A stretch of 64,000 nucleotides of DNA, taken from positions 19,905 through 83,904 of the forward strand of contig JAAZCA010000031.1 of assembly GCA_012513515.1 (NCBI GenBank), written 5' to 3'. The position numbers and the translations under genes are program-made. This DNA comes from Myxococcales bacterium (GTDB lineage: Bacteria > UBA10199 > 2-02-FULL-44-16 > JAAZCA01). Below the pieces are notes generated by a model, which was not told the origin of the DNA, did not search any database, and was given only the letters and a program-made list of their open reading frames with translations. Shown here in pieces: positions 36,361 to 53,580 of this stretch (position 1 is the stretch's first letter; each line of letters begins with the position of its first letter).

Positions 36361-36485
36361 ATTGTTAGAACGGGATTCCCGCCTAAAGCATGCGGGAATG
36401 ACTGCGCACTGAAAGGTTGTCATCCTCGAGTAGTGAGAAGGTTGTCATCCCCGAATGATTTTATCGGGGATCCAGCAACAACCGC
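36361..36485. repeat. Intergenic mosaic repeat cassette
   Basis: GGATTCCCGCCTAAAGCATGCGGGAATGAC plus tandem GTCATCC(T/C)CGA units and a hairpin ending TCGGGGATCC. Confidence 0.88.
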
Positions 36486-36508
36486 AACATGCGAAAGGTA
36501 AAAATATC

Positions 36509-37582
36509 ATGCAAAAATTCAACAAGACCCTTCTTGAAGAGATCCTGTCGCTCCCCACAATGAGTTTCCATGAAACCGCAGTGGCGACATTCGTAAGAAT
36601 CTATTCTGCAGCGATAGGCCTTAAAGTCGATGAAGATCGCTTCGGCAATATACTTGTCAAATACAAGGGCGGTTCGGGAAGGCCGGTTACATTCACAGCG
36701 CACATGGACCATCCCGGATTCGAAATCGTATCCTCATCAGGAAAGAAGGGGACCGCCGCCCTGTGGGGGCGCGTCGACGTAAAGTTCTTTTCAGGATCAA
36801 GCGTAGCGATCCATACGGAGAGAGCTAAGATCAAGGGGAAGATTGGAAAGCTCATCAAATCCAAAAAATATTTTGGCAAGCCATGCTTCGAAATCTCATC
36901 GGATGAAGAATTTTCGGAAGGCGATTTCGGGCATTACGATCTCCCCGGTTTCAAACAGAAGAAAGATATCCTCCATGCCAGAGCGGCGGACAACCTCGCC
37001 AGCGTAGCAGCGATATTGGAACTCATGACGAGGCTGGTCGCCAAAAAATCCAAGTCGAATGTCTGCGGCCTCTTTACGCGTGCGGAGGAAGCCGGCTTCA
37101 TCGGCGCCTTCGGTGCCATCGAGGCCGGAACAGTTTCCGCTAAGGATCCCATAATAGTCATGGAATGCAGCTCCGCGCCCGGAGGCAAGGTCGATATCGG
37201 CGGAGGGCCTGTAATCAGGTCCGGCGATGCCCAGAGTTCCTACGACCCCGCGGTTGAGGCGTGGCTGATCGACTGTGCAGCCTCGGCAAAATCCAGATCG
37301 AAGGGATTCAAAAGCCAACGGGCGCTTCTAAAAGGCGGCCGCTGCGAAGCATGCGTATATGTTGCGGAAGGCTTCCCTGTCGGCGGGCTGGCGCTGGCAC
37401 TTGGCAACTATCACAACCACGGCCCGAAGGGATACGCTGCGGAATACATCTCGGCATGCGACTATGAAAACATGATTTTACTCATGGAAGAGGTCGCCGC
37501 ATCCCCGATGCCCAAGAATATCTTCAAGAAAAAACTCGCCCCGCTATGGAAAAATTACAGGGATCTGAAAAAGAAATTATAA
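36509..37582 (+). CDS. M42/M28-type co-catalytic metallopeptidase
   Basis: TAHMDH, ARAADN, FTRAEEAG, MECSS, GNYHN. Start moved to ATG 36509 because the track start 36455 is inside a repeat. Confidence 0.85.
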   Translation: MQKFNKTLLEEILSLPTMSFHETAVATFVRIYSAAIGLKVDEDRFGNILVKYKGGSGRPVTFTAHMDHPGFEIVSSSGKKGTAALWGRVDVKFFSGSSVAIHTERAKIKGKIGKLIKSKKYFGKPCFEISSDEEFSEGDFGHYDLPGFKQKKDILHARAADNLASVAAILELMTRLVAKKSKSNVCGLFTRAEEAGFIGAFGAIEAGTVSAKDPIIVMECSSAPGGKVDIGGGPVIRSGDAQSSYDPAVEAWLIDCAASAKSRSKGFKSQRALLKGGRCEACVYVAEGFPVGGLALALGNYHNHGPKGYAAEYISACDYENMILLMEEVAASPMPKNIFKKKLAPLWKNYRDLKKKL

Positions 37583-37631: not shown

Positions 37632-37840
37632 TATCTTTATCTTAATCCTGATTCTGATCTTAATAACGATATTTTCGAATATAAGTTAGTTTTACAAATG
37701 CTGATCAAAGATCAGCGATCAGGATTCGCCCCCTCCCGCAACAACCGTGACTGGTGACTCGTATTAAAATTTGCTCGACCATCCGGCAGTATTGGTAAGC
37801 ACATTTACAATCGTCTAACTATCGTCTATAATTAGACTAT

Positions 37841-38875
37841 ATGTTACAGCCCAAGTATAGCGTTTCTGATAAATTACTTAATAATATCAAGACTATAGCA
37901 GTGATATGCTCAGAGCTTAATAATCAGGCATTTGCCAAAACAATACTATCTAGTTTTGAGGCAAAGGCTAATTCCCTCTCTGCATATTCATCCACGAGCA
38001 TTGAAGGAAATCCAATCCCCCTTACGGATGTCAAAAGACTTATTAAATCAAAACCGGAAAAGATCAGAGATACCGAGCGGGAGGTGCTGAACTATAACAG
38101 CGCCTTTGAATACCTTAAAAATGAAATTGCTGGCGGTCAAATATCCATAAGTGAAAAACTGATCTGCACTATCCAAAAGAAAATTACCGAAGGGCTGATC
38201 GAAAAGCACAGATGTGGAAAATTCAGAACTGAACCTGTTTTCGTAAACGACCCCAGAACGGGAAAGCCGGCATATCTCCCTCCCGACCATCAAGATGTTG
38301 GCAAGCTGATGAAAGAATTATTAGATTTTGTAAAGCAAAAGCGTGGCAAGATCGATGCGCTCATTCTGGCCGGAATTTTTCACAAGGAATTTGTGATCAT
38401 TCATCCGTTTGTAGATGGTAATGGTAGAACTGCAAGACTAATCACAAAAGCACTTCTTGCAGATATGGGGTTGAACACATTCAATCTCTTCAGCTTCGAA
38501 AATTATTACAACAGAAATGTCACCAAATATTTTGTAAAGGTTGGAGCGCTTGGTAACTTTTACGATATTGGAAACGACCTTGATCTTACAGAATGGCTGG
38601 AATATTTTACCGATGGAATAATAGATGAGTTGTTGCGCGTTAAAAAGGAGCTCTCTGCCGAAACTATTTCACCTAAAACCAAACTATTTCCCCATCACAA
38701 CAAGATTCTCGATTTTATAGATCGCAACGGATTCATAACGGATAGGGACTATTCAAAGCTGACCAAGCGTGCAAAGGCAACCAGAGCTTTGGATTTTAAA
38801 AAGTTGATGGAACTTGGACTTATTAAACGCTTTGGCAAAGGACGAGCGATTCATTACAAGAAAAAGACAAGATGA
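37841..38875 (+). CDS. Fic family AMP transferase (class II-like) with C-terminal winged helix
   Basis: HPFVDGNGRTAR catalytic motif; SSTSIEGN inhibitory-type motif; C-terminal TRALDFKKLMELGLIKRFGKGR; visibly AT-rich. Confidence 0.93.
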   Translation: MLQPKYSVSDKLLNNIKTIAVICSELNNQAFAKTILSSFEAKANSLSAYSSTSIEGNPIPLTDVKRLIKSKPEKIRDTEREVLNYNSAFEYLKNEIAGGQISISEKLICTIQKKITEGLIEKHRCGKFRTEPVFVNDPRTGKPAYLPPDHQDVGKLMKELLDFVKQKRGKIDALILAGIFHKEFVIIHPFVDGNGRTARLITKALLADMGLNTFNLFSFENYYNRNVTKYFVKVGALGNFYDIGNDLDLTEWLEYFTDGIIDELLRVKKELSAETISPKTKLFPHHNKILDFIDRNGFITDRDYSKLTKRAKATRALDFKKLMELGLIKRFGKGRAIHYKKKTR

Positions 38876-38919
38876 AGCCGGGCGTTTTTTTGCCTGTGTC
38901 GAGATTGCGTGGCCCCCAC

Positions 38920-39033: not shown

Positions 39034-39227
39034 CGTCTTTATCTTAATCTTGATTCTTAATCTTAATCTTGATTTTGTTGTACTTAAATATGATGGTGAG
39101 ATTCCTTCGTTTTTAAGCTTTGATTATAATGAGGAATGAGTTTGGTAAAAAAATGTTATAAATAGATAAAGTGTTTGCCCCGCGCCCGTGCGGCTGATAT
39201 AGCGCTGCGAGACAGTCAGGAGGATTT

Positions 39228-40601
39228 ATGGTCAGAAAAGTCGTCCCATATAAGATCAAGATCGTAGAGCCGATAGCGCTGCTATCCCGCGAGGATCGCG
39301 AGGCAAAGATTTCCGAGGCAGGGCTCAACATTTTTCGCCTCAGATCTAAGCACGTCTACATAGACCTTCTCACCGATTCGGGAACCGGCGCGCTCAGTCA
39401 GGAGCAGCTTTCACAGATGATGATAGGGGATGAATCGTATGCTGGATCCGAGTCCTTCTTCAGGCTGGAGAAGGCGATCCGCGACATCATGCATCTTCCT
39501 TACGTGATCCCGGTCCATCAGGGGCGTGCGGCAGAACAGGTTCTTGATTTCACTCTTGTAAGGGAAGGGCAGGTCGTCCCCGGCAACACGCATTTCGACA
39601 CGACCAAGGCGCATATCGAATTCCGCGGAGGGCGAACTATAGATTGCACTATCGCGGAGGGGCGCGATTCGACGGTGATGTATCCGTTCAAGGGGAATAT
39701 AGATATGAATCTCCTCGAGCATGCGTACAAAAAGTATGGCCGTGAAAAGATATCGTATGTTCTCATAACGGTCACGTGCAATTCCGGCGGGGGGCAGCCG
39801 GTCTCGATGGAAAATATCAGGCAGGTTTCGAGCTTCTGCGCCGAGAAAGGGCTGCGCCTCTTCTTTGACGCCGCGCGTTTCGCGGAAAACGCCTATTTCA
39901 TACAGCAGCGCGAACCGGGCTACGCCGACAAATCTATAAAGGGAATCGTGCGCGAGATGTTTTCATATGTCGAAGGATGTACGATGTCGGCGAAGAAGGA
40001 CGGCCTCGTTCCGATCGGCGGTTTCCTCGCCCTGCGCGATGAGAAACTCTATGAAGAGATGAAGCCCACGGACATCCTCTTCGAGGGTTTCTACACCTAC
40101 GGCGGAATGAGCGGCATGAACATGGATGCGATGGCGCAGGGGCTTTGCGAGGTCGTAGAGGAAAGTTATCTAGCGCACCGCATAGGTCAGACATCATATC
40201 TCGGCGAAGAGCTTACTAAGAGGGACGTTCCGATAGTGAGGCCTGTCGGAGGTCACGCTGTATTTATCGATGGGAGAAGATTTTTCCCGAACGTTCCAGA
40301 AAGCGAATTTCCCGCGCAGCTTCTCGTTGTGGAGCTATATCGCGAAGGCGGAGTGAGGGCGGTAGAGGTCGGCTCATGCCTCGCTGGTCGCGATCCCGAT
40401 AGCGGAGATAACATCCGTCCAGCCCTTGATCTATGCAGACTTACGATCCCGAGGCGCGTTTACACCGAGGAGCATTTCGATTACGTAGCCGACGTCGTTG
40501 ACGAGGTTTTCAAGAAACAGCGAAGCAGAAAGCGCGGCCTCGGATTCGATGTGGAGACCAAGGGAATTCGCCACTTCACGTCGACGTTTAAGGAGTTGTA
40601 A
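39228..40601 (+). CDS. tnaA: Tryptophanase
   Basis: IDLLTDSGT, GDESYAGS, HQGRAAE, SAKKD (PLP Lys); RAVEVGS and RHFT match tryptophanase rather than TPL. Confidence 0.82.
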   Translation: MVRKVVPYKIKIVEPIALLSREDREAKISEAGLNIFRLRSKHVYIDLLTDSGTGALSQEQLSQMMIGDESYAGSESFFRLEKAIRDIMHLPYVIPVHQGRAAEQVLDFTLVREGQVVPGNTHFDTTKAHIEFRGGRTIDCTIAEGRDSTVMYPFKGNIDMNLLEHAYKKYGREKISYVLITVTCNSGGGQPVSMENIRQVSSFCAEKGLRLFFDAARFAENAYFIQQREPGYADKSIKGIVREMFSYVEGCTMSAKKDGLVPIGGFLALRDEKLYEEMKPTDILFEGFYTYGGMSGMNMDAMAQGLCEVVEESYLAHRIGQTSYLGEELTKRDVPIVRPVGGHAVFIDGRRFFPNVPESEFPAQLLVVELYREGGVRAVEVGSCLAGRDPDSGDNIRPALDLCRLTIPRRVYTEEHFDYVADVVDEVFKKQRSRKRGLGFDVETKGIRHFTSTFKEL

Positions 40602-40660
40602 ATCAACGTATCTTATAATTACTCAGTGATGATTGCGAATATAATCTTTTTAAAATCCTA

Positions 40661-40823
40661 AATTGTCGTCGCCGCGACGGGAAAATCCCGTTCCAACCGT
40701 TCACCACTCACCAGTCACGGTCGTTGCTGGATCCCCGATTACACCATTCGGGGATGACACTATGAATGTCATTCCCGCGGCATTAAGCCGCCGCTACCGC
40801 GGGGTTCCAACCGCTCACCAGTC
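40661..40823. repeat. Intergenic mosaic repeat cassette
   Basis: GGATCCCCGATTACACCATTCGGGGATGAC, GTCATTCCCGC, GCCGCCGCTACCGCGGGGTTCC, CACCAGT heptamers. Confidence 0.88.
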
Positions 40824-40939
40824 ACCAGTCGCGAGTTACGGCAGTCCCCACTTGCGCCTTACATGGTATAGTTATAATGATAGCGCAGCATGCTATTATC
40901 CGTTGGCGCATGAGATGCACCTCAACCGGGGAGGATTCA

Positions 40940-41332
40940 ATGTCAATGACCGACAAAGAGCTCATAAAAATCGCGACGGAGGCGAGAAAAAAGGCGTATG
41001 CGCCGTACTCAAAATTCAAGGTGGGAGCGGCACTTCTTTGTAGCGATGGCCGGGTTTTTACCGGCTGCAACGTCGAAAATGCCACGTATGGCGCCACCTG
41101 CTGCGCCGAGCGCACCGCCATATTCAAGGCCGTCTCGGAAGGGGCGCGCGAATTCCTTAAAATAGCGGTGGTGACAGGGAGTTCGCATATCGATTCGCCG
41201 TGCGGGATATGCCGGCAGGTCCTTTTTGAATTCACCCCCGACCTCAGGGTCATAATGGCAAATACTAAAGGAAAATCAGCAGGTTACACCATTAAAAAGC
41301 TCCTCCCCGCCGCATTTTCACTGAAAAAATAG
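40940..41332 (+). CDS. cdd: Cytidine deaminase (homotetrameric type)
   Basis: AYAPYSKFKVGAA, GCNVENA, CAERTAI, PCGICRQ. Confidence 0.96.
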   Translation: MSMTDKELIKIATEARKKAYAPYSKFKVGAALLCSDGRVFTGCNVENATYGATCCAERTAIFKAVSEGAREFLKIAVVTGSSHIDSPCGICRQVLFEFTPDLRVIMANTKGKSAGYTIKKLLPAAFSLKK

Positions 41333-41428
41333 CCCCCTCCTCGGGGGAGACAAGCCGTTTGTGCCCCCGGAGCATACCGGGGTGAAATACGCCGCCAAAA
41401 ATTTTCTCAAAAATTGGCATTTTTTTTA

Positions 41429-41531
41429 GCAACTAAACCACAGAGGGATCGATAACACTGCGGTATAGCGCTTTTGGATAAAGCGCTGAAGGGAAAGAAA
41501 GTTCGCAACAAATAATTTTTTCGGACGATAA
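41429..41531 (+). promoter_or_regulatory. Two tandem putative alternative-sigma promoters
   Basis: GCAA ctaaaccacagaggg ATCGATAA (41429-41455) and GCAA caaataattttttcg GACGATAA (41505-41531). Confidence 0.62.
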
Positions 41532-41599
41532 AACTAGTGGATGGGCATGGGGGCTTTATCCGTGCAAATCCTCTTCAACGGACGGCAAAAGGAGGCACA

Positions 41600-42958
41600 A
41601 TGTTAGCAGGTTCACAAAGATGCGAATTCAGGTCACAACTATGGCTCGATAGCGATTCATTTAAAACGATGATGGAGGTCCTAAAGGCTGACTGCGAAAT
41701 AGATTCGAAGAGGTGCGTCGAGACGGAAGGATTCAAACTAGACAACACGAGCGAGCCCTCCGAAGGTGGATGCAGGCGCCAGGTAAAAAGGGGCGCAGAG
41801 TTTGAAGATGTCTTCCGGAAAGTAGTCGATGGCAGACTAATTTTAGGTCGTATACTCCCGGCCACCCTGCTGTGGAACGCTATGCAAGCCATGGACGTCT
41901 GTAAATGGGGAAGCCGCGCCGGATATCTCTTCGCCGCCGGGACGGAGCTCATAAGAGGGCTTAGGGAAAGCTTCGATCTAGGCAAGGCCGACATCAAATA
42001 TGACGAATCATTCAAACTAATAAAAGACCTGGGAGACAACCCAGTGAAAGCTCTCGTTGAAGCCAAGGCCGAGTTAAAAGCTGACATCGAAAGCACGCAA
42101 ATAACCACCAGTGCGAAAGCTGGAAAGCAAACGCAACTTGACACGCTCAAAAGCCACGAAGAGGACTTGGCGGTTACGTATGCGCGCGCCTCAATCGCTT
42201 TCATCAGGGATAACGCCGCCAAATCCGACCATCTTGAAATGCTTATAAATCTGGGGATGGATGAAGAGACAGCGATGGTCCTCTACTCGCTCGCTCCGGC
42301 CTATAGAGAAGATGGAGAAACGAAGCTAGACGAACTGTGCGTAAGTGTCGCAGTCGAAAAACTCGTTGAAAATAAGTCGATCAGCAGAAGCTGGGGAGAT
42401 GTAATAATCGCATTCAAGAAGATCGTCGACATCAGCGCCGCAATTCAAAAGGCATCCGAAAGTGAAGATGTAAAAAAAATCGATAGTGCATTTGTCGCCG
42501 CAACTGCCGCCAGACAGCCTACGAAAGAGATGATTCAAGGATGGCTCACTAAAAGAATGCAGGCGATAAGGACCGCGATTGGTGAAGATGGGGCATCGAA
42601 GCTCGTTACCTCTTATGAGGAAGCCGTAAATCTCCTGACGGATCTCGTACAGATCACGACGGCCCAGAGCGCCCTTGTGAATTCCTTAACCCCCTTGCTG
42701 ACAGAACTTAATCGGTACGTGGCGCTTTTACAATCCGCCACGCAGCCCGACACCAAATCCGACCCTAAAAAGTCCGAACGAGTAAAAAAGGTACCCCCTA
42801 GAGTCATCAGAACAAAAAGCTCTGGCGGTAAAGCTAGCAGAACCTCTTCTAAGACAAATTATGAAGCAATCTGCCGTTCTACCATTGTGCAACGCGCCCA
42901 AGACGCTGGTCTGCGCGCTGCTTACGCCAAAGCCGTAAAAGAGGGGAAATGTAAGTAA
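41600..42958 (+). CDS. Hypothetical helical protein, 8 Cys, no obvious signal peptide
   Basis: RBS GGAGG before ATG 41600; long open frame; no recognised family. Confidence 0.8.
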   Translation: MLAGSQRCEFRSQLWLDSDSFKTMMEVLKADCEIDSKRCVETEGFKLDNTSEPSEGGCRRQVKRGAEFEDVFRKVVDGRLILGRILPATLLWNAMQAMDVCKWGSRAGYLFAAGTELIRGLRESFDLGKADIKYDESFKLIKDLGDNPVKALVEAKAELKADIESTQITTSAKAGKQTQLDTLKSHEEDLAVTYARASIAFIRDNAAKSDHLEMLINLGMDEETAMVLYSLAPAYREDGETKLDELCVSVAVEKLVENKSISRSWGDVIIAFKKIVDISAAIQKASESEDVKKIDSAFVAATAARQPTKEMIQGWLTKRMQAIRTAIGEDGASKLVTSYEEAVNLLTDLVQITTAQSALVNSLTPLLTELNRYVALLQSATQPDTKSDPKKSERVKKVPPRVIRTKSSGGKASRTSSKTNYEAICRSTIVQRAQDAGLRAAYAKAVKEGKCK

Positions 42959-42995
42959 GTAGTTGTAGGATAAATTCCTTTAATAGGAGGCTAAA

Positions 42996-45674
42996 ATGTT
43001 TTCTGCCGGTGACGATAGATATAAACTTGGGCTTACCCCGATACAAACAGCGATTGTCGATGCCATTGCACCGGCGTTTTGTCCGGTACAAAAGTTTGAC
43101 AACAACCCTGTGAAAAAAGACGATTGCGACCTTCTGCTTGCGAAGGTGCTGGCGGATTCAACCGCGGCTCTCCAGGACGACGAGGCAAAAAACAGGTTCA
43201 CCGCCGAGATATTCCTCCCTGCAGCGCAGACAGTAGGGCACCAGTGCCAAGAACAAAAAGCAAAGAGAATGGTAGGAGATGAGAGACAATGCTCACTCGA
43301 CTCCTACAGGGATGAAAAAAAACCTAGGGTTCAAATTTTAACATCGAGAGATAGCGGTCTTTTAGAGATGCCCTTCATCCCATACCTAAGAGAGGCAGCT
43401 GCAGGAAGAGTGTCAGGAATCTTAAACGCACCGTCAGCCGGCTCCACACGTACAGTAGCTATGTTAACCGCCCCTCTGCCCAATGCAGAGTTTTCAAATT
43501 TTCTAAAAGAGCTCAGGGATAACGGAATGGTAAGGCTCGCCCGCGAGGCAATGCGCCTATTTAACGACGCGGCAGAGCGCGAGGGTTTCAACCGGTCAAA
43601 GATCGACCCCCTAGTTGATTCTATAATAGAGCTCGTAAAAGCGTTCTCAGATCATGTTCCGAGTTCATCAGATAAAGATCATGCAATCGATGCCGCACAT
43701 GAGGCGCTTTCGAAGACTATCATCTATAAATTCGAAGAGGACGGAAGAGGTGATTTTCGTACCCTCCCCGAAAGTGTGTGGGGAGCCGGGAGTAAACTGA
43801 CGGAAAAGGATGCTTTGAGAAAACTCTTCACAAATGCAATTCCGCGTTATCTCGCAAATAAAACAGCCCCGGCATACGCTGATAAAGATGTCACCAAAGC
43901 TCTGGGCGAACTCGGCGACGCGATGCTGAGTGCGATCCAAAAGAGCGCTGAAAAAGATCCCGCAAAGCTAGTCGTAAAAGAGGTGAAGACCGACGGAAGT
44001 GGGAAACCGACCGAGGTGATCTTTATGGATGGAGCCGAAGCCGCCAAAGCTCTGGCTGCTTCAGGTCTGGAAGATACGGACGGCAGGGCGCTTCCAAAAA
44101 GGCTCATCCAAGGGCTAGGCGCAGGATGGAATGAGATAGCGCTTGAGCCCCTGAAGGAACTTTGGAGGGCCGCCTACCTCAAGAACGCAAAACTTGCCAA
44201 GATCGGCACCCCCGAGCGCGAACGCGCAATAGACTCGATGATAGAGCAGCTAGAAGGTGCGAGCCCGGTTGGAATCAAAAGCGCGGTTGTGGAAGATGTT
44301 AAGAGAGACGGCACAGTCGTTCTGGGAAATCTCCCAGAAAAGAAATTCGCGGATAGATACCTCAATTATCTTTCAACGCTCGAAGGCGATATGTACATGG
44401 CCTTCTACGACAAGATAACCGAACTCCACAGGGAGGCCGTGAATAGCGCCGATTTCAAAGCCAAAAAATTTACGGAAGATGACGTAGCATCGGCGATAGA
44501 ACGCTCTCTGAGGGATGCGATATCCGGCGGTAAACCTAAAGGATTGAGCACCTTTGGACTGCTGCATTATGCGGGGCTTGATAAGAACAAGAAGCCGAGT
44601 TTTGCAGCAAAGACGGATGATAAAGGTAGGTTTGGAGGAGAAGCTTCAGTCGTAACATATTTCGACAGCGGTCGTGCCATACTGCAGGGAAGGTTGAGCG
44701 CAGATGTCAGGGCATGGGATATAAATCCGAATTGGTCGCTTTCTGTTCACGGTGGGGTGGCATACGGAGAGAGGCCTGGCTATTTTACCAGAGAGCTCAA
44801 TCGCCCAACAAGCAATCCACAAGGGGTGAAGGATAACTCTCTCGTAACCGGCATAAACTTGTCGGTTGATGGAAAGGTTATGGTAGGCAAGGAAGGCGAG
44901 AAGCGGCCTCTCGGCATGTCGATTGTTGCCGGTATTGTTGAAGACGGCAATGATTTTCGAAACAGGATAGTTTTCCCAAGTTATACCCTGTCCATTCCGT
45001 TTGGTAAAAAGGATGAGACGGGTAGTGGCTCTGTAAGTCTTGGGGCCTCCATTGGCAAATATTTAGATATAAACACTAACTCCAATACGCAAGATCAATG
45101 GAATCTTAATGAGTCGTTTTTTCTTGGCGGATCAGCAGGTGTAAAATGGCTGATGAATAAAGCGTGGAAAGCTAATTTGGGTCTATCGCTACAGTATGAT
45201 CATACTCTTAACGGAAGCGCCGCAAAGCTTTTACAGGGATTATTTGAACTTTCTGCTCAGCTCCCTGGAACCGGCCTCGCAGGCGCCTTTAAGATGATAT
45301 ATTCAGGAAGCTACTCTGAAAATAATTGGCATTATCTGAGCTTTAGAATTCCGATTGAGTTCATGTTCCCACTGCCAGAGGGATGGGAAATAGGTCCCCA
45401 AGTTATCTACAGGACCGATTTGTTTAGTACAGGATTCGATAAAACAAACGACTCCAATTATACATTAGATTCAGCTGCAAACGGCGGCACGATACCGAGT
45501 TCAATAGTCACCGATCCTTCCAATGGAAAGTTTATTCATATTTTAAATCCGCAATTGTGCATTAAACATGATGGAACCGTTGTCGGCGCTAGAGTTTGCA
45601 TGGGATATGCCTGTGCCATGCAGAATCCTTACATTAACCATTTTGGAACGTTTAATGGTGCACTAACTTGGTAA
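42996..45674 (+). CDS. Large hypothetical protein: helical N-terminal region and beta-barrel-like C-terminal region
   Basis: 892 aa; RBS GGAGG; C-terminal third has alternating Gly/aromatic strands and ends FNGALTW. Confidence 0.8.
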   Translation: MFSAGDDRYKLGLTPIQTAIVDAIAPAFCPVQKFDNNPVKKDDCDLLLAKVLADSTAALQDDEAKNRFTAEIFLPAAQTVGHQCQEQKAKRMVGDERQCSLDSYRDEKKPRVQILTSRDSGLLEMPFIPYLREAAAGRVSGILNAPSAGSTRTVAMLTAPLPNAEFSNFLKELRDNGMVRLAREAMRLFNDAAEREGFNRSKIDPLVDSIIELVKAFSDHVPSSSDKDHAIDAAHEALSKTIIYKFEEDGRGDFRTLPESVWGAGSKLTEKDALRKLFTNAIPRYLANKTAPAYADKDVTKALGELGDAMLSAIQKSAEKDPAKLVVKEVKTDGSGKPTEVIFMDGAEAAKALAASGLEDTDGRALPKRLIQGLGAGWNEIALEPLKELWRAAYLKNAKLAKIGTPERERAIDSMIEQLEGASPVGIKSAVVEDVKRDGTVVLGNLPEKKFADRYLNYLSTLEGDMYMAFYDKITELHREAVNSADFKAKKFTEDDVASAIERSLRDAISGGKPKGLSTFGLLHYAGLDKNKKPSFAAKTDDKGRFGGEASVVTYFDSGRAILQGRLSADVRAWDINPNWSLSVHGGVAYGERPGYFTRELNRPTSNPQGVKDNSLVTGINLSVDGKVMVGKEGEKRPLGMSIVAGIVEDGNDFRNRIVFPSYTLSIPFGKKDETGSGSVSLGASIGKYLDINTNSNTQDQWNLNESFFLGGSAGVKWLMNKAWKANLGLSLQYDHTLNGSAAKLLQGLFELSAQLPGTGLAGAFKMIYSGSYSENNWHYLSFRIPIEFMFPLPEGWEIGPQVIYRTDLFSTGFDKTNDSNYTLDSAANGGTIPSSIVTDPSNGKFIHILNPQLCIKHDGTVVGARVCMGYACAMQNPYINHFGTFNGALTW

Positions 45675-45731
45675 CGGGGTTGATGGTATTAGTCCATACT
45701 AAAGAGCTTTGGATAGAGAGAGGATAGGGAT

Positions 45732-48344
45732 ATGAAAATAAAATTCTCCTGGATTTCGAAACTTCTTCTACTCGCGGTCGTATTTCTGACCGCCTGCGAC
45801 GACGGAGAGCTGAGGGTGCGTAGGCATAGCTTCAGCATAACACCGGCGTCACCGGTGATCGTGAAATTCAACGCCGATCCGAACCAGATTCTGCTCGGAG
45901 AGAGCACCACGATAACATGGGAGGTTTCAGGGGCGGACTCGATCGAGATAACTTCCGTCGGCAAGGACGGATCCTCTCCCATTCACGTTGAAACCAAGGA
46001 AAATGCCGGAACGGTGGTTGCGAAGAACCTCACGGCCGACACCGATTTCATAATAACCGCTGCCGTCGCCGCAGGCGCAGGAGCGGAAGGTGACGTAGCC
46101 CCGAAGGGGTTCTCGATAGGCGCGTATCCCCCGAAGGGAGAGGATGTTGCGATAGGCGGGAAGATTGGAGATCCTTCGGGTTCATCCACCGCCCTCCCCT
46201 CCACAAAGACCATCACTGTGAAGGTCGTTGCGGTCGAGGAAGTAAACGCGATGATCACAGCCGATAAGGAAACGCTGGCAGATGGCGAATCCACGATAAT
46301 CCGCTGGAGCGTGACCCCTGAGGATGCGACGGTAGAAGTGCTCGATGATCAGGGCGTTGCGGCAGAGCCAACCTATGCCGGAGATGACTGTTTGATCAGC
46401 GACCCGACTGAGCTTCTCGAACGCGGAACTCCGACGGATCAGGTTCCAGCAAAGGGATGCGCTGTGGTATCGCCATTGCAAAGCTCGGTATATACGGTGA
46501 CAGGCACCTCCAAGAGCGGAACTATCGGCAGCGCTGATGTGGCAGTTTCCGTAGCAAATGTTGAAATATTTGCAGAGATAAAGGTAAACGGTGTTAAGAA
46601 TGCCAAGGTCTTCAGTTTTTCAGATCCGCTCGATATAACATGGAAGGCCGAACCTGCAGGGTCAATCGTTACAATAAAAGCGAATCCAACAGCAGTATCG
46701 TGCACTCCGGAGTTACCTGCTGGACAGGCGGTCAATTATTCAAGTGCGAGCTGTGTAGTTTCTGGAGCTACAGAGTTTATAATCGAGGTAGAGACACCAT
46801 CTGCTGGTAAAGCAAGTGACACGGCTAACGTTGCACTAGGAGAAACAAATGTTGGTTTGGATATACGCTCGGATGAATGGGCATTCCCGGGAGAAGAGGT
46901 TTCTCTGGAAATTAAAGCCGCCAGTGGCACCGATGCGTCTCAGATAAAGGAAGTCCAAATTTCAGACCTATCTGCGGCAGGGTTCATCAAAAGAATTCAA
47001 CTTCCGACTGCAGGCCTTGTTAAAGTAATTACCCCTCCAGAAGGAATCAGAGTAAAGATGGTTGATACTTCGGATCACGTAACTGATTATGGAGTGATGG
47101 TAAGAAGCGTTACGACATTTATTGAAAATGTAACTGAAAATGCAGATGCCATAACTACGCTTTCGTTTGATCCAAATAACAAGGCTACGAGGTTTGCCGG
47201 CGTGCAAATGTCAGGCTGGAATACCGGCAAACTCAGAATTTACAAGAATGGTGCAGATATCGATATTGATCTTGGGGCAGCTTTAAAAGCCGCAAATTCG
47301 ATAGGTAGTGGATGGGTAGAAAGTTTCTTGGATGAGGTAATTCATTACTTCCCTGTCAACGCAATATCCGTTCGACCTGGCAACTCAAATGAAATATACG
47401 TTGCTACCACAGGCGGAGTGATGATTTCAGATGATGCTGGTAAAAATTTTAGCATGCTCACTCCTGCTAGAGTTATAAGCTCAAACGGTAAGGACTATGA
47501 TGGATCGCATCCAACCTGTAGAGGGCTTGAACTAAAAGGCAGTAAGGCGACTTTCAAAAAGCAGATAGTCAACCTTAAACAGGTTTGCGATGTAGAAATT
47601 TCGAAGAGTGGGAGGATTCTCGTAGCAACTGACATGGGAATCCTGACAATAAGAGATGTTCAGGCATTTCGCAATAAAGAGGCTGGCGCTGGCGTGATAG
47701 GAAGGCCATCTGAAGGCCAAACCGCTGAAAGCTCCGGTTATTTAACTTTTGGCCATGTAGTGGATGATGTGATTTGCGTAGATATCGACTCATGTTCAAA
47801 GGCTTTTGCTGCAGCTGACAATGGAATATTTGTCAGCAATGATGGCGGTGAAACTTGGACATCATTTGGAGAAGTTTCATCGAGAGCTTACGAACTTAAA
47901 ATTCTAGGAGATACTATATACGCAGCGACAGAATCAGGCATATATCAATCGCCTATAGCATCTGCGGGATGGGTAAAAATGGGAGTGGATTCCAAAGTGC
48001 TCTCGCTCGCCATTGATCCCACAGTGGGTAAATTTGGAAGAATGTTAATAGCCGCAACCGAAGATGGAATGGTTGTTACGAGGGATTCAGGGGCTACTTG
48101 GTCTGCGATGAACGTTGATGGCATATCTGCTGGTGATAGTGTAGCCCTATGGGCAAATACATCCCAATTTGGCGGCAAGATGATCAATGTCATGTTTGGC
48201 AGTGGAAAGAATATAGTTTTTGGTCAGGCTTTGGTAGGAACGGTGGCGCAGGAATTAGAGAATTCGGAATATGAAGAAGCGCTGCTCTCAGCCGGCGCAG
48301 ATGAAAAAGTAGTCGAGGCATTGAAGACTAGGTCTTCGAAATAA
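45732..48344 (+). CDS. Surface lipoprotein with Ig-like repeats and Asp-box (BNR) beta-propeller
   Basis: Lipobox LTAC; repeats ADPNQILLGESTTITW / ADKETLADGESTIIRW; Asp-boxes SDDAGKNF, SNDGGETW, TRDSGATW. Confidence 0.8.
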   Translation: MKIKFSWISKLLLLAVVFLTACDDGELRVRRHSFSITPASPVIVKFNADPNQILLGESTTITWEVSGADSIEITSVGKDGSSPIHVETKENAGTVVAKNLTADTDFIITAAVAAGAGAEGDVAPKGFSIGAYPPKGEDVAIGGKIGDPSGSSTALPSTKTITVKVVAVEEVNAMITADKETLADGESTIIRWSVTPEDATVEVLDDQGVAAEPTYAGDDCLISDPTELLERGTPTDQVPAKGCAVVSPLQSSVYTVTGTSKSGTIGSADVAVSVANVEIFAEIKVNGVKNAKVFSFSDPLDITWKAEPAGSIVTIKANPTAVSCTPELPAGQAVNYSSASCVVSGATEFIIEVETPSAGKASDTANVALGETNVGLDIRSDEWAFPGEEVSLEIKAASGTDASQIKEVQISDLSAAGFIKRIQLPTAGLVKVITPPEGIRVKMVDTSDHVTDYGVMVRSVTTFIENVTENADAITTLSFDPNNKATRFAGVQMSGWNTGKLRIYKNGADIDIDLGAALKAANSIGSGWVESFLDEVIHYFPVNAISVRPGNSNEIYVATTGGVMISDDAGKNFSMLTPARVISSNGKDYDGSHPTCRGLELKGSKATFKKQIVNLKQVCDVEISKSGRILVATDMGILTIRDVQAFRNKEAGAGVIGRPSEGQTAESSGYLTFGHVVDDVICVDIDSCSKAFAAADNGIFVSNDGGETWTSFGEVSSRAYELKILGDTIYAATESGIYQSPIASAGWVKMGVDSKVLSLAIDPTVGKFGRMLIAATEDGMVVTRDSGATWSAMNVDGISAGDSVALWANTSQFGGKMINVMFGSGKNIVFGQALVGTVAQELENSEYEEALLSAGADEKVVEALKTRSSK

Positions 48345-48367
48345 AAAGAGGTAAGGTAAATAATTTC

Positions 48368-48403
48368 AAACGCCGGAGGAAAACCCTCCGGCGTTTTTGT
48401 TTT
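48368..48403 (+). terminator. Rho-independent terminator closing the 3-gene orphan locus
   Basis: AAACGCCGGAGG-AAAAC-CCTCCGGCGTTT-TTGTTTTT. Confidence 0.85.
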
Positions 48404-48478
48404 TCCGGGGGACTCAAACCGCTTATCTCCCCTGAAAAAGTATGGCATTTTACGCCTCCGCGATTATAATCGCCCACC

Positions 48479-48892
48479 ATGAAGAACCGCAAATTGAAGA
48501 TTTTTATCCCCCTTATAATTTCAAGCGCGCTAGCAATCCTCGCCATCCCCCCCTCGATCTGCCATGGAATGGCAAAAAAACACTCCGAATCCGCTAAATT
48601 CGAAGAAAGCCCCGGCTGGAACAAGATAGATCTTCGCATGAAAACTGCGTGGAAAGAGGCTGAATCTGAAGGAAAACGCTCAAAAATGCTCGAATGTATA
48701 ATAAAAACCGAGGAAAAACCCGATAAAGATGGTCGCGAACTCCTAAAACGGGCTGGATTTAAGACCAGAACTTTTATAGGAAGGATAGTAACCGGATCGG
48801 TGGCAGCGGGAGACCTGCCGATGGTCGCTAACCTCGAAATGGTGGAAATCATGGAACTTGCGGCCCCCATGTCGCTTAAAAAGAAAAAATGA
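48479..48892 (+). CDS. Exported small protein resembling a stand-alone subtilase prodomain
   Basis: Signal peptide; C-terminal half aligns by eye with the prodomains of both S8 proteases in the window. Confidence 0.7.
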   Translation: MKNRKLKIFIPLIISSALAILAIPPSICHGMAKKHSESAKFEESPGWNKIDLRMKTAWKEAESEGKRSKMLECIIKTEEKPDKDGRELLKRAGFKTRTFIGRIVTGSVAAGDLPMVANLEMVEIMELAAPMSLKKKK

Positions 48893-48993
48893 TGCGATCA
48901 TCGCGTGTTAAAACAGGCAAGCCCCTTCTCTTATACAAAACTCAACCACGGAAGTGGGCGTCGCATCTCATTTGATGCGCAATCGGGGGAATC

Positions 48994-51375
48994 ATGAAGA
49001 AAAATCTAATCTATCTGACGATGGCGATCCTCATGGCCCTTCCATCGGCCGCGTACGCCGGAAAGCTCGATCTTCAGCTTAAAATGCTGGCCCAAAGTCC
49101 CGAAATCGGAAAGACTATGCTCGGCAAGTCCCTCTTCGTTCGCGGCGGACGAGAGTTTGTCGATGTCATAATAAAATCCTCCGATACCGCGATCACCAAA
49201 GAGGCGATCGAGGAAAATGGCGGAACGGTGAGAAGCCTCATCGGCAAGATAATGACAGCATTCGTTCCGATTTCTTACCTGAGCGCGCTGGAAAATCTGG
49301 ATGAGGTGGAAGCCGTCGAGGCATCGGTACCGATGAAAAATCTGATGGACTCCGCTCGCTCAAATACCGGCGTAGCAACGCTTCAGGCCGGATATAAGAA
49401 TGTGCAGTACACCGGGGAAAACGTCGTCGTAGGAGTCATCGACACGGGGATCGACTATTCCCATTCCGATTTCAATAACGCGGACGGAAAATCCCGCGTT
49501 CAGTACCTTCGATTTCAAAGCGCTGACGAAGATGGGTTCTCGATAACGGAATGCGCCAACGATACAATAAGGGATGGTTCGTGCGAGATATCCTACTATA
49601 ACAATAAAGATGATGGCCACGGGACTCACGTAGCCGGAATTGCAGCCGGGAGCGATAACACTTACACGGGCGTTGCCAGCGCGGCAGACATAATGCTCGT
49701 TCGAAATGATTACCGCGATGATATAGCGGAGGATGGAGAACATGCTTCAGGTCCAACATTCACGGCCGGGGTACTGGATGGGATAGCCGAAATTTTCAAA
49801 AAAGCGGACATCCTCGATAAGCCGGCCGTAATAAACATCTCTCAGGGAACCCATATCGGCGCACACGACGATACATCCCTTCTTGAATTTGGAATAAACG
49901 AAGCCGTCGCCGGAAAATATGCTGACAATGGTAAAAACTACGGCAGGGCGGTGGTTGTGGCGGCTGGCAATGAGTACGTAAACACAGATATACTGAGAGA
50001 GCTGGGAACTCTTGGTGATACATATGCAGATCATGCAGGCGGAATTCACGCCTCGTTTGATGTCCCAAATGGTGAGAGCCATGCCTGGAGGCTTTGGGTA
50101 ATACTGGGCCAAGCGGTGGGGAGAATTCCGCTTATAATCGACGCGTGGTTTGGCGTGGGAAGCCAGGACCACTGCTCGGTCGCATCGAACATATATCGTT
50201 ACAATGATGTAGCATCTTCTGGGGCATCCACCTCGAAGGCGGTGGCATCTGTAGGAGACATTCGCCTCTCTGAAAATAAGAACGAAAGCGACGAATCATC
50301 GGACAAGATAGTAGCAACCGTTCTCGCTACCGATGGAGCCGATGCCAGAAACGGAAAGCCGAGGGCGATGGTGGCGTTTGCGCCTGGAAGCAAAGCCGCC
50401 ACTATCGAAGAAGGGGAGATAATAATAATGAAAGATTACATAGGCATCACGAGCGGAAAGGGGTACGTCCTCGATATCATAATCCGCGCTAGCGGCGGAG
50501 AGTGCGGGGGGGATATGTGGTTGGAAGGGGGAGGAACCTACGCCAATTTTATGAAAGGAATCGACAACGGCGACTTTGACATGACAAGCGGCAACAACGG
50601 CGCTGCCTATGTATTCCACAGTCAAACGGGCAGTGGAAATAATTTGATGACGGTGGGGCTGCCTGCTACAGCCTCAGGCGTCATCGCGGTTGGCGCATAC
50701 CTGCAGGAAAAACCACATGGACAAAATAAGAGCGAATGGAAAGACTATTACGGCAAAACGTGGGACGCGACCGATATAGACAGCGATACGGATGGCTATG
50801 CGAATATAAATGGCGGCACTGTAATGGAGAGATGCCCATTTTCAAGCGCAGGCCCTACGGCAACCGGAGCTATCAAACCCGAAATCATGGCGCCGGGGGA
50901 CCCTGTAATCTCAACGCTGGCAAAAGGATACGAGAAATCTTACACGGATAGAGAAGGCACTAACTCCTTCAGGCCTCTCAAAATTGACCACAATCATTTC
51001 AAAAGCCAGGGGACATCGCAGGCCAGCCCTCACATAGCCGGGCTCGTGGCATTGCTATTCCAGAAAAACGACACCCTGACGGCTGACCAGACGAAGGACG
51101 CAATAATAGCCGGAGGCTCCCTCACGACCCCTACCTATGAGGTCGGATACGGAAATGTAAGCGCGACAAAGGTCATCGATTCCGTTTCTTCGCCCGATAC
51201 GCGCGGATACAGCGGAACTGGAGATCTCAGCACAAGCGATCTGAATCCCAGTTCTTCCAAGGGATGCGGAGGAAGCATAGCGCCTTTTGATTCTGCCGGT
51301 TCCCTGTCGCAGATCATCATTCTCGCACTCGCCGCGGCAGGAATGGCGGTGCGAAGGATGAAAAAACATTGTTAA
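48994..51375 (+). CDS. S8 serine protease with MYXO-CTERM-like tail (paralog of 26845)
   Basis: GVIDTG, DDGHGTHVAG, VAAGNE, QGTSQASPHIAG; tail KGCGG...IIILALAAAGMAVRRMKK. Confidence 0.92.
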   Translation: MKKNLIYLTMAILMALPSAAYAGKLDLQLKMLAQSPEIGKTMLGKSLFVRGGREFVDVIIKSSDTAITKEAIEENGGTVRSLIGKIMTAFVPISYLSALENLDEVEAVEASVPMKNLMDSARSNTGVATLQAGYKNVQYTGENVVVGVIDTGIDYSHSDFNNADGKSRVQYLRFQSADEDGFSITECANDTIRDGSCEISYYNNKDDGHGTHVAGIAAGSDNTYTGVASAADIMLVRNDYRDDIAEDGEHASGPTFTAGVLDGIAEIFKKADILDKPAVINISQGTHIGAHDDTSLLEFGINEAVAGKYADNGKNYGRAVVVAAGNEYVNTDILRELGTLGDTYADHAGGIHASFDVPNGESHAWRLWVILGQAVGRIPLIIDAWFGVGSQDHCSVASNIYRYNDVASSGASTSKAVASVGDIRLSENKNESDESSDKIVATVLATDGADARNGKPRAMVAFAPGSKAATIEEGEIIIMKDYIGITSGKGYVLDIIIRASGGECGGDMWLEGGGTYANFMKGIDNGDFDMTSGNNGAAYVFHSQTGSGNNLMTVGLPATASGVIAVGAYLQEKPHGQNKSEWKDYYGKTWDATDIDSDTDGYANINGGTVMERCPFSSAGPTATGAIKPEIMAPGDPVISTLAKGYEKSYTDREGTNSFRPLKIDHNHFKSQGTSQASPHIAGLVALLFQKNDTLTADQTKDAIIAGGSLTTPTYEVGYGNVSATKVIDSVSSPDTRGYSGTGDLSTSDLNPSSSKGCGGSIAPFDSAGSLSQIIILALAAAGMAVRRMKKHC

Positions 51376-51470
51376 TTGTTGGAACTGGATTCCCGCCTAA
51401 GACCGCGGGAATGACAACAAACGAGATTGTCATCCCCGCATGGTTTTGGCGGGGATCCGGTAGCTACAGT
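51376..51470. repeat. Intergenic repeat cassette (two hairpins)
   Basis: GGATTCCCGC..GCGGGAATGAC and GTCATCCCCGC..GCGGGGATCC. Confidence 0.85.
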
Positions 51471-51487
51471 AACTTGGAATCGAATAA

Positions 51488-53566
51488 ATGAAAAAAATCA
51501 TCTCAGCGGCGCTGATCGCCGCAATCGCCATCGCAGCTTCATTTGGAATCTCAAAATTAAAATTTTTATCCAGCGCTGAAGATACGACCTTCGATATCAG
51601 ACAGCTCGCCTTTTCCCCGAAAACATCTGCCAGCGCCGATATCGTCATGATCTGGATCGACGAAAAAACGATTTCGTCGCTGCCATATCGATCCCCGGTG
51701 CCGCGCGATTTCCTCGCCAAGTTAAATGACAGACTGCTTTCAGCAGGCGTGAAAATCGTGGGCTATGACATCTTTTTCAAGGGCACATCATTTCCCGAGG
51801 CCGACTCTGAACTCGCCGAATCATTGAAAAAATCAAACTCGCTCGCAGTGGTTCCGATGAGGCCGAGATCCCTCTGCCATGAAAAATTCGCAGAGGACCC
51901 GGCAATATCCGGATGCGTGGATCTTCCGGATGAAATTTTCATGAACTCACTTACGGGAATCGGACTTGCCGACCTGCCATTTTCCGCATTTGATTCCACA
52001 GTCAGGGAGGCAAAGCTTTCATTCATAACCGACCGCGGAAACACCCAATCCTTCGCTGCCATACTCTACGAGGCAGTTAGCGGCGACAGGGCGCAGGACC
52101 TGATCGGAGATCCTGCAAACTGGAAAGGGGTTGGGCTTTTATCCATCCCCCCTTTTTCTGATTCCTCCGGAAAAACAGCGATTCGTTTCGCCGGACCTCC
52201 GAGCACAATCGGATCCGAAAAAAATCCATTCAGGATATTTTCGGCGAAGATGGTCGCAGATGGCATGATTCCCGATTCATGGCTGAAGGATAAGATAGTT
52301 CTTATCGGCGCGGCATACGACGACGCCACCGATGCCTACCTCACGCCGTATTACGGAATATCTACCGGATTTGCCAGAATGAACGGCGTGGAAATACATG
52401 CAAACATTCTATCGTCGCTCATGACGAAACAGTTTTATTACTCGATAACTCGCTGGCAGGTATGGATGATATCGGCTGCGCTCGTAATTTTGGTCTCTCT
52501 TTCATCGACCATCTTCCCTCCGCTGCGATCGGCGGCTGTCGCTTTGGCTTCGGCGTTTGGATGGATATTCGTATCTGTAATCATTTTCAAAAAATATGCG
52601 ATAGTCGCTCCGATCGTAACCCCTATCGTTGCGATAGCGATATGCTATCTCTTCGGAGTTGTCTGGAAGGCACTCACCGAGGGGAGGGAGCGAAAATTCA
52701 TAAAAGGAGTTTTCTCAAGATACGTCCCGCCTGCCATAGTCGATAGGATAGTTGAAAATCCCGAGTTGATAAAGCTAGGCGGTGATGAACGGGTCATCAC
52801 CAGCATGTTCACCGACATAGCATCTTTCACGAGCATCTCGGAAAAACTCGACCCTTCGACCCTCGTTTCTTTTCTAAATGAATATCTCGGCAGGATGAAC
52901 GATGTGCTGTTCGAATTCGGCGCCACGCTCGACAAATACGAGGGGGATGCTATCATCGCATTTTTCAACGCTCCGCTCGACGTGGCAAATCATGAGATAG
53001 CCGCTGCAAGCGCCGCGATACGCATGAAAGCGGCTGAAAAAGATATCTCGGAAAAATGGAGCGGGCGCTGCGGCAGAGAAATCCGCACGAGGATCGGAAT
53101 AAACACCGGCCCTGCCGTAATCGGCAACATGGGTTCGGAAGGTCGTTTGGATTACACAGCGATCGGCGACACGATAAATCTAGCAAGCCGACTCGAGGGA
53201 ACGAATAAATTCTACGGAACGCACATAATTGCGAGCCAGTCCACCGCAGCCGCTCTGTCCGATTCGATAGTAAGAAGGCCTGTCGATCGCGTTCGTGTGA
53301 AAGGAAAAAACGAACCGATACTCATTTATGAGATCATAGGTTTTGCGAACGAGCTCGACCCGGCGCGGATCGATTTCGTAATTGCGCAATATCTTGAAGC
53401 GTTCAAAAAATTCGAACAGCGGGATTTTTCTGAAGCGAAATCGATCCTGCAAGATATTCTGACAAGACATCCCGATGATTTCCCATCAGTGGAACTTCTC
53501 AAGCGCTGCGAGCGCGGAATTTTGGATCCAAGTTGGGATCTTGTAACGGAGATCTCTGGAAAATAG
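51488..53566 (+). CDS. CHASE2-domain class III adenylate cyclase
   Basis: IVMIWIDEKT, PVPRDFLA, GVEIHANI (CHASE2), three TMs, FTDIASFT, KYEGD, RIGINTG, YTAIGDTINLASRLEG. Confidence 0.93.
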   Translation: MKKIISAALIAAIAIAASFGISKLKFLSSAEDTTFDIRQLAFSPKTSASADIVMIWIDEKTISSLPYRSPVPRDFLAKLNDRLLSAGVKIVGYDIFFKGTSFPEADSELAESLKKSNSLAVVPMRPRSLCHEKFAEDPAISGCVDLPDEIFMNSLTGIGLADLPFSAFDSTVREAKLSFITDRGNTQSFAAILYEAVSGDRAQDLIGDPANWKGVGLLSIPPFSDSSGKTAIRFAGPPSTIGSEKNPFRIFSAKMVADGMIPDSWLKDKIVLIGAAYDDATDAYLTPYYGISTGFARMNGVEIHANILSSLMTKQFYYSITRWQVWMISAALVILVSLSSTIFPPLRSAAVALASAFGWIFVSVIIFKKYAIVAPIVTPIVAIAICYLFGVVWKALTEGRERKFIKGVFSRYVPPAIVDRIVENPELIKLGGDERVITSMFTDIASFTSISEKLDPSTLVSFLNEYLGRMNDVLFEFGATLDKYEGDAIIAFFNAPLDVANHEIAAASAAIRMKAAEKDISEKWSGRCGREIRTRIGINTGPAVIGNMGSEGRLDYTAIGDTINLASRLEGTNKFYGTHIIASQSTAAALSDSIVRRPVDRVRVKGKNEPILIYEIIGFANELDPARIDFVIAQYLEAFKKFEQRDFSEAKSILQDILTRHPDDFPSVELLKRCERGILDPSWDLVTEISGK

Positions 53567-53580
53567 AGATGTATGAATGA

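Follow-up and report, generated by a model that had tools for sequence, protein, structure and literature searches.

Five adjacent genes, here called g1 to g5 in order, form a cell-envelope module of two operons (g1-g3 and g4-g5) in a 64-kb stretch of contig JAAZCA010000031.1 (assembly GCA_012513515.1, Myxococcales bacterium), which is referred to as the window in its whole length and to which all coordinates refer unless another locus is named. The five genes are conserved together, and the module is an ancestral, fast-evolving unit of at least five genes that is specific to a lineage of uncultured diderm bacteria labelled as Deltaproteobacteria or Myxococcales. Within the species, allelic replacement is concentrated in g2 to g5. 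We propose, giving the reading about an even chance, that the products of the module assemble into a polymorphic surface complex of the outer membrane, made up of a barrel (g2), a lipoprotein (g3), and a protease (g5). Two central proteins, g1 and g2, have no known family, and the whole can be likened to known surface complexes of barrel, lipoprotein, and protease. The organism is diderm, as the window also encodes a TonB-dependent receptor. The features of the module are as follows (aa, amino acids; nt, nucleotides).

41333..41599, + strand: intergenic region upstream of the g1-g3 operon, holding TGGCATTTT at 41415 and the Shine-Dalgarno sequence AAAGGAGG at 41587-41594
41600..42958, + strand: g1, 452 aa
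42996..45674, + strand: g2, 892 aa
42996..44585, + strand: N-terminal domain of g2 (aa 1-530), predicted to be helical, starting with MFSAG and containing four conserved Cys
44586..45674, + strand: C-terminal domain of g2 (aa 531-892), with about 16-17 long antiparallel strands predicted, ending in GALTW
45732..48344, + strand: g3, 870 aa
48368..48396, + strand: intrinsic terminator closing the g1-g3 operon, with a 12-13-bp stem, 8 G-C pairs, and a T-rich tail
48442..48470, + strand: sigma-70-like promoter, ATGGCA-17-TATAAT, a consensus match only, ending 8 nt before the g4 ATG
48479..48892, + strand: g4, 137 aa, secreted
48994..51375, + strand: g5, 793 aa, S8 subtilase
51488..53566, + strand: CHASE2 adenylate/guanylate cyclase, a conserved neighbour whose membership in the module is not shown

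The loci of relatives (designated L with a number) were collected from the contexts of protein-search hits and from GTDB species genomes scanned with a g3 alignment, resulting in about 13 lineages, all of which are metagenome-assembled genomes (MAGs) that bear the label Deltaproteobacteria, Myxococcales, Pseudomonadota, or just 'bacterium'. Close relatives of g2 are rare, as five were found in 5.8 billion proteins and a g2 profile search of 1.84 billion representative proteins returned 4 hits; relatives of g3 reach further, down to 27% identity. In all of the approximately 13 lineages, a g2-family protein of 836-1057 aa is located directly upstream of g3, the assignment to the family being made through chains of phmmer hits. 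The original prediction had described three co-oriented open reading frames (ORFs) of 452, 892, and 870 aa, all of which are present, and had named a lack of any co-occurrence in related genomes as grounds for refutation. This refutation fails, since g1, g2, and g3 stand together in every related genome found. The three genes are, however, not the self-contained locus that had been assumed: g4 and g5 accompany them in nearly every related genome, g4 wherever the contig extends far enough and g5 in all lineages whose contig reaches it except L017, in some cases with 1-3 other genes inserted before it. In several lineages, insertions are concentrated between g3 and g4 (L005, 12865-18397; L014, 12788-16950; L017, 12836-17272; L018, 12940-14049; L019, 9238-10494, in the coordinates of each locus), with inserts that include AAA_14/DUF4143 ATPases, a HEPN/nucleotidyltransferase pair, a PDZ protease, and other ORFs.

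The setting of the module is constant, with cdd on one side and the CHASE2 cyclase, a 308-aa secreted protein, and groESL on the other; in the most distant lineage (L007), the flanks have changed and the module is kept. The synteny conserved across the lineage rules out a foreign island. Divergence within the module is much faster than in its surroundings: GroEL is 85-91% identical across lineages, compared with 25-29% for the N-terminal domain of g2, and the barrel of g2 cannot be aligned at all.

We also compared the window with two conspecific assemblies, L001 (GCA_029546995.1) and L011. The flanks (39100-42900 and 52500-55600) are approximately 100% identical among the three. Between them, L001 differs from the window over 42900-51400 as a mosaic of blocks with 64-92% identity. 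L011 has identical g2 and g3 genes, with identity falling to 70-90% over g4, g5, and the 5' part of the cyclase gene, which encodes the N-terminal CHASE2 domain. In the latter gene, the CHASE2 part (51500-52500) is 78-92% identical between the window and L011 and the cyclase domain is approximately 100% identical, which indicates that the hypervariable zone extends into the CHASE2-encoding region of this next gene. Synonymous divergence (dS) between the window and L001 amounts to 0.90 for g2 (1.89 for its barrel half), 0.36 for g3, 0.41 for g4, and 0.35 for g5, compared with ≤0.004 in the flanking genes, and the ratio of nonsynonymous to synonymous divergence (dN/dS) is 0.13-0.32 for g2 to g5. 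Such high dS, together with low dN/dS and nearly identical flanks, points to old and functional alleles that were assembled by recombination.

Breakpoints inside g2 were confirmed by protein mosaics, and barrel domains have been swapped between strains as cassettes. In strain L008 (P0005), the N-terminal domain of g2 is 97-100% identical to that of the window, and its barrel, which does not align with that of the window, belongs to another class and shares 35-36% identity with the L004 and L013 barrels; compared with the lineage that has the like barrel, the N-terminal domain of L008 shows 28-29% identity. The identity of the propeller half of g3 in the same strain falls to 36-54%. In addition, the barrel of L022 is 100% identical to that of L001, with cdd DNA at about 82% identity and a g1 allele at 52%. 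Between L001 and the window, the barrel is about 60% identical and g3 91%. The synonymous divergence of the module is about 100 times the genomic background, and, whatever g2 is, this is an unusually clear case of long-lived allelic diversity in an uncultured lineage from anaerobic digesters. Such extreme diversity within a species fits a surface-exposed structure, marks the module as a likely interface with phages, predators, or kin, and makes it a useful strain-typing marker in population studies. Strong allele differences between close relatives are also known for traA of the Myxococcus TraA/TraB system (PMC3325183), although none of the five module proteins resembles TraA or TraB.

The start of g2 is fixed by two in-frame stops four codons upstream of its ATG. 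The original prediction of a membrane-inserting barrel in this protein agrees with its C-terminal third, which behaves like a membrane beta-barrel. In a full-length AlphaFold model (6 sequences; predicted local distance difference test score, pLDDT, 38), DSSP assigned helices up to about residue 525, followed by about 16 long strands connected by hairpins. Residues 520-892 modelled alone (7 sequences) gave a pLDDT of 46, a predicted template modelling score (pTM) of 0.41, and 17 strands. When the latter model was searched against the PDB by Foldseek, the 50 best matches listed were all outer-membrane barrels, with template modelling (TM) scores of 0.4-0.56: PgaA (4y25) was the best structural match to this low-confidence model (0.47/0.56), followed by OprD, OmpG, PorB, chitoporin, OmpM1 (rank 11), BamA, and AlgE. 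Moreover, the alternating (dyad) hydrophobicity expected of membrane strands is present in 14 of the 17 predicted strands, Gly, Ser, Asn, Tyr, and Trp are over-represented in the domain, and the last residue is aromatic in seven of the 13 distinct orthologues. One orthologue matches OMP_b-brl (E 0.013), the sole outer-membrane protein match in Pfam. The C-terminal domain of g2 is therefore probably an outer-membrane beta-barrel, as judged from these models and sequence properties.

The N-terminal domain can be aligned across genera at 26-29% identity. Its C44, C84, and C99 are invariant and C29 is found in 15 of 16 sequences, and the spacing of these four Cys differs between orthologues. Conserved Cys at variable spacing suggest disulfides and hence an extracytoplasmic location of g2. 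The protein would then consist of a barrel of 16-18 strands in the outer membrane and a conserved four-Cys helical domain that faces the periplasm. In architecture and size, a helical domain followed by a C-terminal porin of 16-18 strands recalls the exporters PgaA, BcsC, and PelB. The likeness to PgaA depends on the low-confidence barrel model (TM-score 0.47-0.56), and g2 differs from these exporters in having neither a tetratricopeptide repeat (TPR) signature nor a signal peptide; for PgaA and BcsC, there is the further difference that no polysaccharide synthase or modification genes occur within ±10 kb in any locus. Type Va autotransporters also combine an N-terminal non-barrel domain with a C-terminal barrel that ends in an aromatic residue. 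However, g2 has no match to Autotransporter (PF03797), no Sec signal, and about 16-17 strands in the model instead of 12, and here the barrel is variable and the N-terminal domain conserved, which is the reverse of autotransporters.

The same architecture, a helical domain followed by a barrel, could also belong to a structural element, in which the helical domain of g2 would link the outer membrane to the cell wall or a surface layer, after the manner of OmpM or Omp-alpha/Omp-beta, and g3 would serve as a surface coat. OmpM1 stands among the fold matches, and the strong ribosome-binding sites and the terminator suggest high expression. Against this, no SLH, OmpA-like, or peptidoglycan-binding domain was found in Pfam searches, the N-terminal domain is not modelled as a long coiled coil, and essential tethers are usually conserved rather than hypervariable. 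We consider a tether very improbable.

The original prediction had described g2 as signal-less, and this description holds, as the protein lacks a hydrophobic signal. No export signal was found among 12 orthologues of g2, whose best 10-residue N-terminal hydropathy is 0.3-1.9, compared with 2.3-3.5 for g3, g4, and g5. What the N-terminus does have is a conserved pentapeptide, M-[I/F]-[S/G/A]-[A/G]-G, in 11 of the 12 orthologues. Its codons vary synonymously between orthologues, from which it follows that selection acts on the peptide; this variation, together with the different upstream sequences, also ruled out an RNA hairpin formed by the MISAG codons and the Shine-Dalgarno sequence. The same pentapeptide begins three g1-like proteins (in L014 and L019), and paralogues that share a domain with these pentapeptide-bearing proteins carry normal lipoprotein signals. 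Elsewhere in the window, and throughout about 200 kb of related loci, no real gene shows this start. It is conceivable, though unlikely, that the pentapeptide is an undescribed export or sorting tag, independent of Sec and Tat, for g2 and some helical partners, and that the barrel is a swappable specificity cassette of a new polymorphic surface complex. If g2 is truly an outer-membrane barrel, it would represent a rare case made without a Sec signal, and its five N-terminal residues would provide a direct experimental handle.

The absence of an export signal in 12 of 12 orthologues could also mean that g1 and g2 are cytoplasmic and mere neighbours of a secreted set, in which case the beta-domain of g2 would be soluble and its diversity would come from an intracellular arms race, e.g., phage sensing. 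The low confidence of the structure models agrees with this possibility, as do the four conserved Cys, which could bind metal. It is difficult to reconcile with the dyad hydrophobicity of the strands, the terminal aromatic residue of many orthologues, the exclusive presence of membrane barrels among the 50 best fold matches listed, and the different spacing of the Cys between orthologues. Furthermore, some g1-like paralogues bear true lipoprotein signals and have a domain in common with the signal-less ones, no PADLOC match was obtained, and each genome keeps g2 and g3 closely linked within a single operon. A cytoplasmic location thus appears improbable.

Many effectors likewise lack a Sec signal. 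In a polymorphic contact-dependent effector system, g2 would be exported via the pentapeptide route, its swappable barrel would insert as a pore into a neighbouring cell, and g3 would be a delivery adhesin or provide protection. The conserved N-terminal domain of g2 with its cassette-like variable C-terminal domain, the parallel divergence of the g3 propeller half in L008, and the movement of alleles between lineages are all compatible with this idea. Nevertheless, no toxin, pre-toxin, or immunity domain was found in Pfam, NCBIfam, or PADLOC searches, and no secretion-system genes lie within 10 kb of any locus. The would-be immunity gene encodes an 870-aa lipoprotein rather than a small protein, which, along with the missing toxin and pre-toxin domains, sets the module apart from the polymorphic toxins of contact-dependent inhibition (CDI) and Rhs systems. 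A dN/dS of 0.13-0.3 gives no sign of ongoing positive selection, and co-variation of the two genes is loose, as can be seen from the barrel (about 60%) and g3 (91%) of L001. We therefore think it improbable that g2 acts as an effector.

The original prediction also specified an Ig/propeller lipoprotein, and in g3 a lipobox, repeated beta-sandwich-like domains, and a BNR/Asp-box propeller were all found. The lipoprotein signal ends in LLLAVVFLTAC|DDG, with the lipobox LTAC and a Cys that is invariant in 12 sequences; in the conserved motif CxDGxL at the lipid Cys, C, D, and G are invariant in the 12 relatives and L is nearly so. Residues 28-125 and 150-270 form two homologous repeats, each about 100 aa long (HHalign probability 95.6%), and the first of them resembles an immunoglobulin (Ig)-like domain of a virion protein. 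The beta-propeller occupies approximately residues 480-840, with Asp-boxes (S-x-D-x-G-x-T-W) at 566, 702, and 783. Its Pfam BNR score is 26.9 bits against a cut-off of 27, and the g3 profile matches 6p2k (E 2.5e-11), a BNR glycosyl hydrolase, and Ycf48. Acidic residues following the lipid Cys are reminiscent of the surface-export signal of Bacteroidetes (PMC5080379), which is a lead only.

The second operon encodes a protease together with its probable partner. g4 carries a signal peptide, is homologous to the N-terminal pro-region of g5 (residues 23-117; HHalign probability 97.2%, E 3.1e-11; BLASTP identity 28-40%), and has no match to Pfam Inhibitor_I9. It probably represents a stand-alone inhibitor or chaperone of the prodomain type. 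g5 has a Sec signal and an S8 domain (PF00082, E 7e-35), and the triad motifs DTG150, HGT209, and GTSxA673 are conserved in its orthologues. The subtilase is intact and ends in a C-terminal sorting tail of Cys, transmembrane helix, and Arg cluster. In the window, this tail consists of a Gly/Ser linker, GCGGSIAP, a transmembrane helix, and RRMKK, and all 11 orthologue tails follow the same order (Gly/Ser linker, GCGG[ST][IL][AV]P, transmembrane helix, Arg cluster). This is the tripartite Cys-containing architecture of MYXO-CTERM-type sorting signals (10.1101/2023.06.07.544157; PMC11980579). A search with TIGR03901 (cut-off 20 bits) gave 17.6 bits for the best g5 tail (L007) and no hit for that of the window. 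A second S8 subtilase in the window (26845-28986, 713 aa) has a similar tail (GGSLGC, transmembrane helix, RRRSMR), so the Cys/transmembrane/Arg signal is used more than once in this genome. Both subtilases thus share with MYXO-CTERM proteins an invariant-Cys motif, a transmembrane helix, and an Arg cluster.

The dentilisin complex PrcB-PrcA-PrtP of Treponema denticola is a surface subtilase with accessory lipoproteins that works with the two-domain sheath protein Msp. The module resembles this system in combining a surface subtilase, accessory envelope lipoproteins, and a probable outer-membrane protein with periplasmic and barrel parts. It differs in that g5 reaches 58 bits against the NCBIfam PrtP cut-off of 300, is sorted by the C-terminal Cys/transmembrane/Arg tail rather than an N-terminal lipobox, and has unrelated accessory proteins.

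This weak match of g5 to dentilisin PrtP (58 bits) would also suit surface foraging, in which g5, controlled by g4, degrades extracellular protein, g3 binds the substrate, and g2 is the uptake channel, with polymorphism arising from the use of these receptors by phages. Such a system would parallel Sus-like or TbpAB-like pairs of barrel and lipoprotein, or the dentilisin-Msp complex, with protein as its target. Genes for peptide and amino-acid catabolism are found in the window (6207-7718, 36455-37582, 39228-40601, and 61757-63139), namely M17 and M42 aminopeptidases and two beta-eliminating lyases, and OPT oligopeptide transporters adjoin cdd in L005 and L023; the catabolism genes hint at a proteolytic, amino-acid-fermenting lifestyle. 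A neighbourhood this rich in such genes speaks for foraging, and so does the resemblance of the g3 propeller to GH74- and BNR-type binding or hydrolase propellers. However, these neighbours are ordinary syntenic housekeeping genes and are replaced in L007, where the module persists. A TonB box or plug is absent, known uptake-channel families are not matched, and g1 is left without a role. Foraging is, in our opinion, rather unlikely.

The reading that we prefer remains the polymorphic outer-membrane surface complex. In this complex, the g2 barrel would be the membrane platform or translocon for the surface-displayed g3 lipoprotein encoded directly downstream, and g1 would be a periplasmic or secreted accessory partner. 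The surface-anchored protease g5, restrained by g4, may mature or shed the complex or supply it with substrate. Because the complex would be exposed, phages, predators, or kin discrimination could impose frequency-dependent selection, which would keep very old alleles while recombination shuffles them. The logic would be that of Slam and its surface lipoproteins (type XI secretion system, T11SS), of other barrel-lipoprotein pairs, or of the dentilisin-Msp complex, although the module shows none of the defining sequence features of the Slam and dentilisin-Msp families. In Slam systems, the gene for an outer-membrane protein that joins a helical N-terminal part to a barrel lies beside that of the lipoprotein it would serve, and cargo and partner genes are antigenically variable (PMC5449769, PMC8406197). 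The direct succession of g2 and g3 in all of the approximately 13 lineages is a feature of this kind. On the other hand, neither the window g2 nor 16 orthologues matched DUF560 (PF04575) in Pfam at E<=1, and g2 has no Sec signal and no TPR match. Compared with Slam, g2 is about twice as large and has about 16 predicted strands instead of 14, the C-terminus of g3 is a BNR propeller rather than the small barrel domain of Slam cargo, and here the barrel gene lies upstream and the lipoprotein gene downstream, with a protease pair attached.

Several observations weigh against a surface complex of this type. Neither g1 nor g2 has a Sec, Tat, or lipoprotein signal, while outer-membrane proteins of the same genome (the TonB-dependent receptor and a porin-like protein) do carry signals, and the crossing of the inner membrane by g2 is not explained by any known route. 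Both g2 models are of low confidence (pLDDT 38 and 46), so their fold matches are only indicative, and searches against outer-membrane protein sequence families gave nothing above threshold for g2. Between barrel alleles, predicted loops are 66% identical and strands 60%; as the loops are no more divergent than the strands, the loop-focused pattern of exposed porins is absent, and loop-focused variation was accordingly discarded as a description of the barrel. In enterobacteria, Asp at position +2 keeps lipoproteins in the inner membrane, and since g3 has Asp at this position, its surface exposure is not shown.

The first gene of the module, g1, evolves fast. The g1 protein has no signal peptide and contains 8 Cys, with a Lys-rich tail followed by a C-terminal stretch between Cys425 and Cys451. 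No family had been recognised for g1 and g2 in the original prediction, and this was borne out: no housekeeping family matches either protein, neither has a match above threshold in Pfam, NCBIfam, or PADLOC, and phmmer and profile searches of PDB sequences gave no match. The single PHROGs match was a sub-threshold hit of g1 to an entry with no domain. Across related lineages, the position upstream of g2 is taken by 1-4 Cys-containing proteins without a family, unrelated or paralogous, for which Pfam, NCBIfam, PADLOC, and PHROGs likewise gave nothing above threshold. Across lineages, g1 is not recognisably homologous. Homology between g1 clades is weak at most (31% probability), and a comparison of g1 with the N-terminal domain of g2 showed no homology. 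Between g1 and its L001 allele (8605-9963 in that locus), there are 16 amino-acid changes and very few synonymous ones in an otherwise identical background (dN 0.017, dS 0.008, ratio about 2). This ratio may indicate positive selection, although the counts are small.

The arrangement of g1, g2, and g3 is that of one operon, the first half of the two-operon module. The intergenic gaps are 37 nt (g1-g2) and 57 nt (g2-g3), and no terminator-like site was found on the + strand inside g1-g3. The strong terminator that had been reported behind the genes is indeed present, as a G+C-rich 12-13-bp hairpin with a T-run located 24 nt past the g3 stop. Ribosome-binding sites described as strong are so for g1 (AAAGGAGG) and g2 (TAGGAGG), both 5-8 nt ahead of the ATG, but the site of g3 (GAGAGG) is weaker. 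The g1 ORF is open upstream to a GTG at 41537, and gene calls in relatives begin at the ATG at 41600. The alleged AT-richness of the 3' half is confined to two patches, at 45000-45800 (end of g2, GC 0.41-0.43) and 46600-48200 (propeller half of g3, GC 0.42-0.47), compared with a window mean of about 0.50.

Two tandem copies of a promoter motif had been placed in front of g1, but the region showed nothing beyond a weak direct repeat of 24 nt (71% identity, copies 114 nt apart) and one exact copy of the 9-mer TGGCATTTT, whose frequency in the window does not exceed that in shuffled sequence. No convincing promoter was found in the 41333-41599 region. A sigma-54 promoter at 41414 (TGGCA..AGCA) was ruled out because its spacing is one base off. 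With regard to the second operon, g4 lacks a Shine-Dalgarno site and the sigma-70-like pair stops 8 nt short of its ATG, so that transcription of g4-g5 may yield a leaderless mRNA.

In addition, a dispersed intergenic repeat of 45-130 nt occurs in at least 10 copies in the 64 kb, in both orientations, with 81-94% identity and an internal inverted repeat (40700-40870, about 2332, 4620, 9846, 12828, 22103-22256, 31615-31745, 36443, 51395-51474, and 53697-53757). It looks like an element of the repetitive extragenic palindrome (REP) or miniature inverted-repeat transposable element (MITE) type. A weak partial copy (71% identity) is situated at the boundary between g5 and the cyclase gene, where strain identity falls. 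Upstream of the module, an approximately 1.25-kb insert of low GC content (0.40; 37665-38919) carries a gene with a Fic domain (37841-38875, PF02661). The insert is missing from the conspecific assemblies L001 and L011, which are otherwise 99.7-99.8% identical, and is therefore a strain-specific insertion.

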